Shown here in pieces: positions 46,389 through 47,180 of a stretch of DNA of 64,000 nt. How positions within the stretch are numbered: position 1 is the first letter of the stretch; each line of letters begins with the position of its first letter. The notes under the pieces are model-generated. The model saw only the letters and a list, made by a program, of their open reading frames with translations. It had not been told where the DNA came from and ran no database searches. The DNA is from Eledone cirrhosa (lineage: Eukaryota): the NCBI GenBank assembly GCA_964016885.1, contig OZ024740.1:126728001-126792000 (forward strand). Reading direction: 5' to 3'. The translations under genes and the position numbers were made by a program.

Positions 46389-47180
46389 GTGTATGTGTTT
46401 GTAAGTATTTTTACTTTTGTGTGTAAGTTTATTTATGTGTTTTATTCTACTTATATATGCTTCTATGTATGTGTTTACGATTTTAGTTGTTTGTATGCGG
46501 GTGTATATAGGCCTTTGGTTTTTGTCTGTATAGTCTTACGTATGGTTTTGTCTGCGTGTACTTTACGTGAGAGTGCGCGCACCCATGTGGTTACTTTTGT
46601 ACGTTCTTTTTGTAGGGTGTATGTGTGCGTTAGTTTATTTGATTGTATGCTTATTTTCATACGTGTGTATGCGAGTGTATGTGTATATTTCTACGCTTGT
46701 GGTTGCGTATGTGGAAGTGTATGTATGTTTATTTTATAATATATATTTTTGTGTATATATATATAGTTATGTAATAAACAACATAAGGCAATTATTTCAT
46801 TGGTGTATGTTGGTTAAATTCCTGAAAAGCGTAGAGTGCTTCAACTAATCGGGCTGGAAAGTGCCAATCATATATGTAATATAGAATATGATTCAATCAA
46901 TCCCGGTTGGAGCTGTATAAATAAAGTAATTCCGTCGGAAGTTCCGGGAAAAAAGAGTGCTCTATGTAGGTAACAAAGCATACAGCTCCAACCAGGATTG
47001 ATTGAAGCATATTCTATATTACATATATGATTGGCACTTTCCAGCCCGATTAGTTGAGCACTCTACGGTTTTCAGGAATTTAACCAACATCCACCAATGA
47101 AATAATTGCCTTATGTTGTTTATTACATAACTATTAAGCTCTGTGACCTACATAGAGCACTCTTTTTTCCTGGACCTTTC
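46389..47180. mobile_element. Non-coding derivative of the family E PLE: 3' UTR piece plus two inverted, circularly permuted leader copies
   Basis: 46470-46760 is the reverse complement of ~38150-38440; 46766-46980 and 46981-47180 match 40863-41081. Confidence 0.85.

Follow-up and report, generated by a model that had tools for sequence, protein, structure and literature searches.

How could the end of a retroelement leader come to be joined to its own beginning, and does such a join record cleavage of RNA by a ribozyme inside a cell? The question arises from a locus in the 64,000-nucleotide stretch of Eledone cirrhosa DNA that we analyzed (the window), in which two pieces of the 5' leader of a Penelope-like element (PLE) lie in opposite orientations, each with such a join. 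We number the leader on an intact copy (L028) so that +1 is the first base after the predicted hammerhead cut, positions in other subfamilies being offset by up to 3. The two junctions are exactly where the original prediction had placed them, at 46801/46802 and 47095/47096 in opposite orientations, and both lead from +219 to +1: CACC at 46805-46802 is followed by AATG from 46801 on the minus strand, and CACC ending at 47095 is followed by AATG from 47096 on the plus strand. One A is common to the two sides, so that the join can be read as 219|+1 or as 220|+2; the ATG microhomology that had been suggested here thus comes down to this one base. Arm A, on the minus strand, consists of leader +1..+39 (46763..46801) joined at 46802/46801 to leader +43..+219 (46802..46979), a full round minus 3 nt, whereas arm B, on the plus strand, consists of leader +105..+219 (46980..47095) joined at 47095/47096 to leader +1..+107 (47096..47202). 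Each arm amounts to about one 219-nt round (within 3 nt), and the two abut head-to-head at 46979/46980, between remnants of a (TA)n target, neither assigned to a strand, at 46753..46765 on the left, where the outer edge of arm A adjoins it, and at 47199..47227 on the right. The left flank (46361-46740) is 81% like a TG-rich sequence at 38167-38560.

Intact copies elsewhere in the genome match the arms at 95-96% identity, which rules out chance similarity. The genome search that had been suggested for the exact junction motif returned 2 matches in 2,995,841,428 bases (the 3.0-Gb genome), both at this locus, and we therefore reject an amplified 219-nt family or satellite. We likewise reject two independent events in the window, as the join is private to the locus and both arms carry a rare G at leader position 192, which is present in 3 of 57 distinct copies (arm A, arm B and the intact copy L021). 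Since the arms share both the private join and this G, they are one data point: a single insertion of a PLE that appears to belong to the Hydra clade, not independent copies. That the locus is an artefact of assembly is hardly credible; contigs from four public runs of one study (X1-X4), mostly 40-60 nt long in this repeat, do not span the join, but several substitutions and indels set arms A and B apart, and the same architecture is found on many contigs with differing joins.

The ORF behind the leader, as read at L228, has 710 codons with 2 stops and contains RWK at 37, DKT at 114, CSCRKPDEC (CxCX5C) at 555 and CxxC at 658, together with the motifs FDIVDFYPS and YRDD and, toward the C terminus, a VVY...YVG region recognized by eye; a Pfam search with three pieces of this ORF gave no RT and no GIY-YIG match. 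By its RWK, DKT, YRDD and CxCX5C motifs the family appears to match the Hydra clade of PLEs, which is defined by the RWK motif, the change of DKG to DKT and the CxCX5C linker (PMC8557442, in its accessible parts). It also resembles the elements described there in having a single short ORF of ~710 aa, in which RT would be followed by a C-terminal endonuclease region, a hammerhead in the pLTR, insertion into (TA)n, and copies that are 5'-truncated, inverted or partially tandem, of which (TA)n insertion, the pLTR with hammerhead and inverted 5'-truncated copies are all present here. It differs in that units are self-closed within the 5' leader and each insertion has a join of its own; partial tandems and inversions are reported in the accessible parts of that paper, and such self-closed joins are not among them. 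An 18-base pLTR motif has 1492 exact matches in the genome, and copies at the first 30 of these loci have their 3' ends at about +35/+39 (17 loci), about +107 (11) or elsewhere (2), so that 28 of the 30 sampled copies end at one of two standard positions; head-to-head pairs among these loci have one arm per standard end. In the X1-X4 contigs, too, +39 and +107 ends adjoin (TA)n. The outer edge of arm A is the first of these standard ends and that of arm B the second. The different phases at which the two copies begin and end, which the original prediction had pointed out, are thus real, but they are the two usual 3' ends of the family and provide no evidence for a circle.

Two ends of this kind have a counterpart in the anole element PAc, for which the accessible parts of PMC11167929 describe initiation in vitro at two internal sites, yielding two 3' ends, extension of both DNA strands, and uncut RNA as the main template. 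In PAc the two sites are 30-40 nt apart in the ORF, whereas here they are 68 nt apart in the 5' leader; and while the fate of the enzyme at the RNA 5' end is left open for PAc (PMC11167929), the genome studied here appears to record a jump to the 3' end.

The source of the arms had been sought in a neighboring PLE copy on the minus strand, with a type I hammerhead motif at 41072..41136 (recognized by eye, predicted cut 41082/41081), a 219-nt leader at 40863..41081 and a broken RT and endonuclease ORF at 39182..40862, which has frameshifts, stops and an internal deletion and aligns with the L228 ORF by tblastn in four pieces at 55-79% identity. We reject this element (40862-41081) as the parent. 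Its leader is 88% identical to the arms, compared with 95-96% for intact copies elsewhere, its ribozyme core has GGAAC in place of GAAAC and the triplet GUC, whereas the triplet is GUA in each of the 54 distinct GAAAC-pattern cores from the loci retrieved; it is a more diverged relative. Intact copies have the parts of a type I hammerhead, namely the core, a long stem II preceded by a bulged base, GAAA-CC-ACU-GG-UA and a stem I of 7 bp. The hammerhead was identified by eye and its self-cleavage is a prediction; minimum-energy folds of L027 and L028 recover stem II, though not the full hammerhead, and no Rfam hammerhead match was present among the 150 of 188 matches listed for the window or around L028. 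We note that L164 has lost the ribozyme core through a deletion running almost exactly from one strand of stem I to the other, and that four more pLTR fragments of the family in the window (27932-28160, 34577-34739, 58000-58191 and 62868-63119) have hammerhead cores that look intact, one with a single altered core base.

Joins of this type are widespread. Across the genome we found 39 independent loci at which the leader or the early ORF runs on into a more upstream portion of the element, with 36 distinct joins; the number of loci is a lower bound, as exact-match searches miss diverged copies. New loci came from a DNA search (11) and from four gapped-motif searches (4, 10, 12 and 2), and about 15 joins were placed by eye where our script erred across subfamily indels or short arms. 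The DNA search and the first gapped-motif search were biased to re-entry near +1..+20, whereas in the less biased searches re-entry was upstream of the cut site at 5 of 13 loci (second gapped-motif search) and 13 of 22 loci (third, anchored in the leader). With an anchor placed in the ORF, about 200 nt from its start, there were 2 matches, as against 27 with the leader anchor. Re-entry ranges from -97 to +71 and lies upstream of the cut site at 17 of the 39 loci (-86..-97, 8 loci; -66, 4; -47, 1; -19..-4, 4; +1..+34, 21; +71, 1), and the donor ends at 190-275 at 34 loci, the remainder ending at 118, 129, 348, 473 and 506. The expectation that the join marks the cleavage site is not borne out by this set: joins in other copies are scattered, with 36 distinct joins at 39 loci and 1 of 39 at +1/+2, an outcome that had been named beforehand as speaking against it.

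It could nevertheless be that the join in the window is a fossil of hammerhead cleavage in vivo, the template's 5' terminus having been a ribozyme product, and such an origin would be compatible with either of the copying routes considered below. The join does sit at +1/+2, but among the 25 re-entries in -21..+34 it is the only one to do so, which is the chance level (0.9 expected under even scatter, P(at least one)=0.60). We also counted insertion 5' ends, taking copies in which both bases before a given position are foreign. At +1 there were 23 matches, including 8 independent insertions with clear 5' ends (this locus among them), 3 ambiguous cases and 10 point changes in intact ribozymes, whereas the controls at +4 and -7 gave 7 matches with 4 ends and 16 matches with 6 ends, respectively. 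The 8-11 ends at +1 thus represent an excess of at most about twofold over the controls, which is not significant (p=0.06-0.22). A control at -4 permitted the native base and stands outside this test; it returned 203 copies, mostly point-mutated, and both bases were foreign in 2 of the 100 listed. In the leader-anchored search, with this locus excluded, 8 re-entries fall in +1..+21 and 3 in -21..0 (p=0.11). Against cleavage, 17 of the 39 joins hold sequence from upstream of the cut and so used uncut RNA, and for the anole PLE none of the RNA-seq reads had a start or end at the cut site (PMC11167929, in its accessible parts). A modest input of ribozyme-cut RNA is possible. As a record of ribozyme cleavage the join is weak, since a lone join at the cut site does not by itself demonstrate cleavage in vivo, and we regard this origin of the template end as possible but doubtful.

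A more prominent upstream end lies at -91. A base other than T precedes the G at -91 in 173 genome matches, and among the 100 listed that base is G in 87, A in 7 and C in 6. Thirty loci were read, including five pairs that are each the two arms of one insertion, and what lies upstream of -91 is foreign or inverted sequence at 28 of them; at several of the -91 loci an extra G ends both arms. Insertion 5' ends at -91 with an extra G are far commoner than ends at +1; fold-back onto the element's own GG could explain the extra G in 5 of 24 G-start loci. In L1 and SVA insertions an extra untemplated 5' G has been attributed to copying of the cap (PMC3287187, in its accessible parts), and by analogy we infer that a capped transcript may start at -91 within the pLTR and that the usual template is uncut RNA, as it is for the anole element in vitro (PMC11167929). 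We note that the turning point of inverted arms is often an imperfect palindrome immediately behind this start (L123, L130, L147, L149, L150; L095, L098, L109), and fold-back of the cDNA end at that palindrome may be an origin of the inverted ends of PLEs.

The sequence at the joins is informative as to how the two RNA ends were brought together. Of 26 joins without inserted bases, 22 have at least one base common to the two sides (null 0.51, p=3e-4) and 7 have at least three (null 0.09, p=0.007), while the other 13 contain untemplated bases, mostly A or G and including some single A's. One join has seven inserted A's (L069), which suggests an adenylated RNA 3' end, and four joins at -91 contain the extra G (L070, L071, L073 and L084). 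Among the 12 loci with re-entry at -66 or farther upstream, there are 9 at which one arm breaks off no more than about 5 nt from the point of re-entry, as judged by eye, and stops there are as expected at a physical RNA end. Stops near +93..108 and +28..43 are about 8 times denser than elsewhere (11 in 418 nt compared with 7 in 2109 nt, p=3e-5, for 26 arms from the leader-anchored search), although these windows were picked after the data had been seen and are AT-rich, and microhomology joining to (TA)n could give part of the signal. At L072 the arm that starts at +107 ends at +40, the start of the other arm. This pattern fits two primers per RNA and an enzyme that runs off at the 5' end, clamps onto the 3' end of that RNA and pauses where it had itself begun.

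Together, the excess of microhomology, the untemplated A and G, the repetition of joins within loci and the one-round stops of the arms support end-to-end template jumping on short linear pLTR transcripts as the source of the joins, a reading to which we give a probability of about 60% on what the genome sequence offers. Of the two routes in the original prediction it is therefore the jump of the reverse transcriptase, from the RNA's front end back to the vicinity of the start codon, that the set of joins favors. Arms A and B were likely copied from one short linear RNA corresponding to the front of the element and ending near the start codon; these RNA 3' ends, and jumping within one molecule, are what we infer. 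The endonuclease of the element would cut (TA)n on both strands, and each strand would prime reverse transcription within the RNA, the two starting points being +107 and +39. Once at the 5' end of the RNA, the enzyme would take hold of that RNA's 3' end by means of 0-5 bases, shared or untemplated, and continue to the start of its own cDNA, where it would usually stop but might otherwise displace the cDNA and make another round, and the two cDNA ends would finally be joined head-to-head. The template's 5' terminus would mostly be the capped start at -91, sometimes -66, and otherwise a scattered point downstream; at this locus it would be +1/+2, either ribozyme-cut or one of the scattered ends. 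End-to-end template switching by the R2 reverse transcriptase was reportedly described by Bibillo and Eickbush in 2004. A close parallel is the group II intron RT, which likewise jumps from a 5' end to a 3' end by way of one base pair or a few, repeatably and precisely and with help from untemplated bases; that activity was seen in vitro with separate RNAs, whereas jumping here would have taken place in vivo, on one molecule, after internal priming and in both arms (PMC8363836, in its accessible parts).

One feature of the joins would be expected of a circle as well as of linear jumping. At 14 loci the join is present 2-6 times, and its position is constant at 13 of these, the exception being L077, whose two tandem joins differ by one G, which could be a later indel. 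Every multi-join locus with re-entry at -21 or farther downstream (13 of 13, the present locus included) keeps a constant join, and at L059 the same inserted A is found in both arms. Constant joins and the shared A of L059 are also predicted by a covalent circle, and leader fragments with varied ends might have been ligated by a host ligase into RNA minicircles that were then copied by rolling circle from +39 and +107, the ligated end here possibly being the 5'-OH end left by the ribozyme. Products of one round and of several rounds, both of which are present, are consistent with such circles; RtcB circularizes retrozyme monomers in vitro (PMC7229834), and the standing proposal for PLEs, as given in the accessible parts of PMC4209133, is ribozyme cleavage, ligation to a circle and copying of more than a unit length. 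Ligation nevertheless leaves the excess of microhomology unexplained. A capped end cannot be ligated, so the joins with an extra G speak against ligation: re-entry is at -86..-97 in 8 of the 39 joins, four of which have the extra G. Moreover, arms of the -86..-97 class often end right at the re-entry point, and nothing ribozyme-like defines the 3' ends (118-506). We consider minicircles unlikely.

The joins might instead have arisen at the level of DNA in two steps, a microhomology-mediated deletion in a tandem PLE copy having fused +219 to +1 before transcription and retrotransposition, with tandems forming later through slippage or unequal crossover. Microhomology at the joins would be expected on this account, and there are three pairs in which both loci have the same join (L012/L013, L054/L072 and L086/L088). 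A perfect six-fold array would also be in keeping with it: L233 (G000:C2:169701235-169705135) has six identical joins in a tandem array of a 183-bp leader unit that lacks the ribozyme, with 0 differences among five full units. Yet 36 of the 39 joins are distinct and a source copy with the join of the window is absent from the assembly, so that nearly every source would have had to leave one daughter and then be lost. In addition, subfamily-diagnostic bases differ in 2 of the 3 join-sharing pairs, and extra G and oligo(A) at joins indicate RNA ends. We regard the DNA-level route as improbable, more so than minicircles. The members of the L086/L088 pair, on two contigs, have the same join (200 to +21, with one A), and both adjoin the GAT-repeat end of a similar short repeat; their common join could reflect either one source or a hot spot. 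A further tandem, L004, has three units with a jump join in common and, near +107..+126, a further internal deletion of ~20 nt that they likewise share.

Returning to template jumping, a broader proposal would be that the PLE reverse transcriptase performs rolling-circle copying of a linear, capped RNA, with internal priming on both target strands and a jump from the 5' cap to the RNA's own 3' end but with neither ribozyme cut nor ligase, and that this one reaction accounts for tandem pLTRs, for inverted arms and for how hammerhead retrozymes are born, with dozens of independent births in this genome; we put this forward tentatively, at somewhat less than even odds. A template whose 5' end is at -66 or further upstream would yield a unit with the whole hammerhead, that is, a retrozyme-like repeat. 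The unit retains the whole hammerhead at 12 of the 39 loci (L046, L054, L061, L067, L068, L070-L073, L077, L084 and L090), with the ribozyme in three tandem copies of ~422-bp units at L077 (G000:C7), in two at L061, L067 and L073 and in one at the others. These 12 loci look like newborn retrozymes and are candidates for the birth of retrozymes from loci of this kind. The 219-nt unit in the window is not a retrozyme, because it begins at +1 and, with only the 3' strand of stem I, has no complete hammerhead. Like the metazoan non-LTR retrozymes described in the accessible parts of PMC7229834 and bioRxiv 10.64898/2026.07.22.740005, the units here are short, AT-rich, head-to-tail and derived from PLE pLTRs, and those at the 12 loci, ~300-570 nt long, include a full type I hammerhead. 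Those retrozymes, however, are amplified families whose unit ends are set by ribozyme cuts, whereas the loci here are near-singletons whose unit ends appear to be set by the start and end points of an RNA.

PLE tandems, inversions, tails and pLTR hammerheads are already known. Phylogeny has recently linked retrozymes to the pLTRs of PLEs without settling the mechanism (bioRxiv 10.64898/2026.07.22.740005), and the accessible parts of PMC8557442, PMC11167929 and that preprint leave open the origin of PLE tandem pLTRs and inverted ends, the RNA template and the origin of retrozymes. A literature search, in which coverage of subscription journals and of older Penelope papers was incomplete, returned no description of self-closed PLE leader units with private joins. 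The loci described here point to uncut, capped RNA and a template jump as the route for at least one class of these structures, and template jumping, if it occurs, would also seed new tandem repeats that bear a ribozyme. It makes exact predictions for the existing in vitro system, namely a start at -91, initiation at +39 and +107, and RNA 3' ends near the start codon.

Lastly, the window contains several other repeats. A high-copy TG-rich element with constant flanks carries a degenerate hammerhead region of the family (-67..+30) at 59949-60005 and 60964-61066 and accounts for 18 of the 30 loci L175-L204; it is a separate repeat with a captured piece of the pLTR. Another PLE lies on the plus strand at 42047-45112, with Pfam matches to RT (E 9.5e-7) and GIY-YIG (E 2.5e-6), and its repeat at 44843-46353 recurs at 17237-19047. 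A large inverted duplication, 97-100% identical in pieces, spans 58019-63040 with its center near 60500, and a tandem array with a unit of ~590 bp (99% identity), long hairpin-like inverted repeats and nested duplications are found at 23056-25004, 25131-25823 and 32627-35492.
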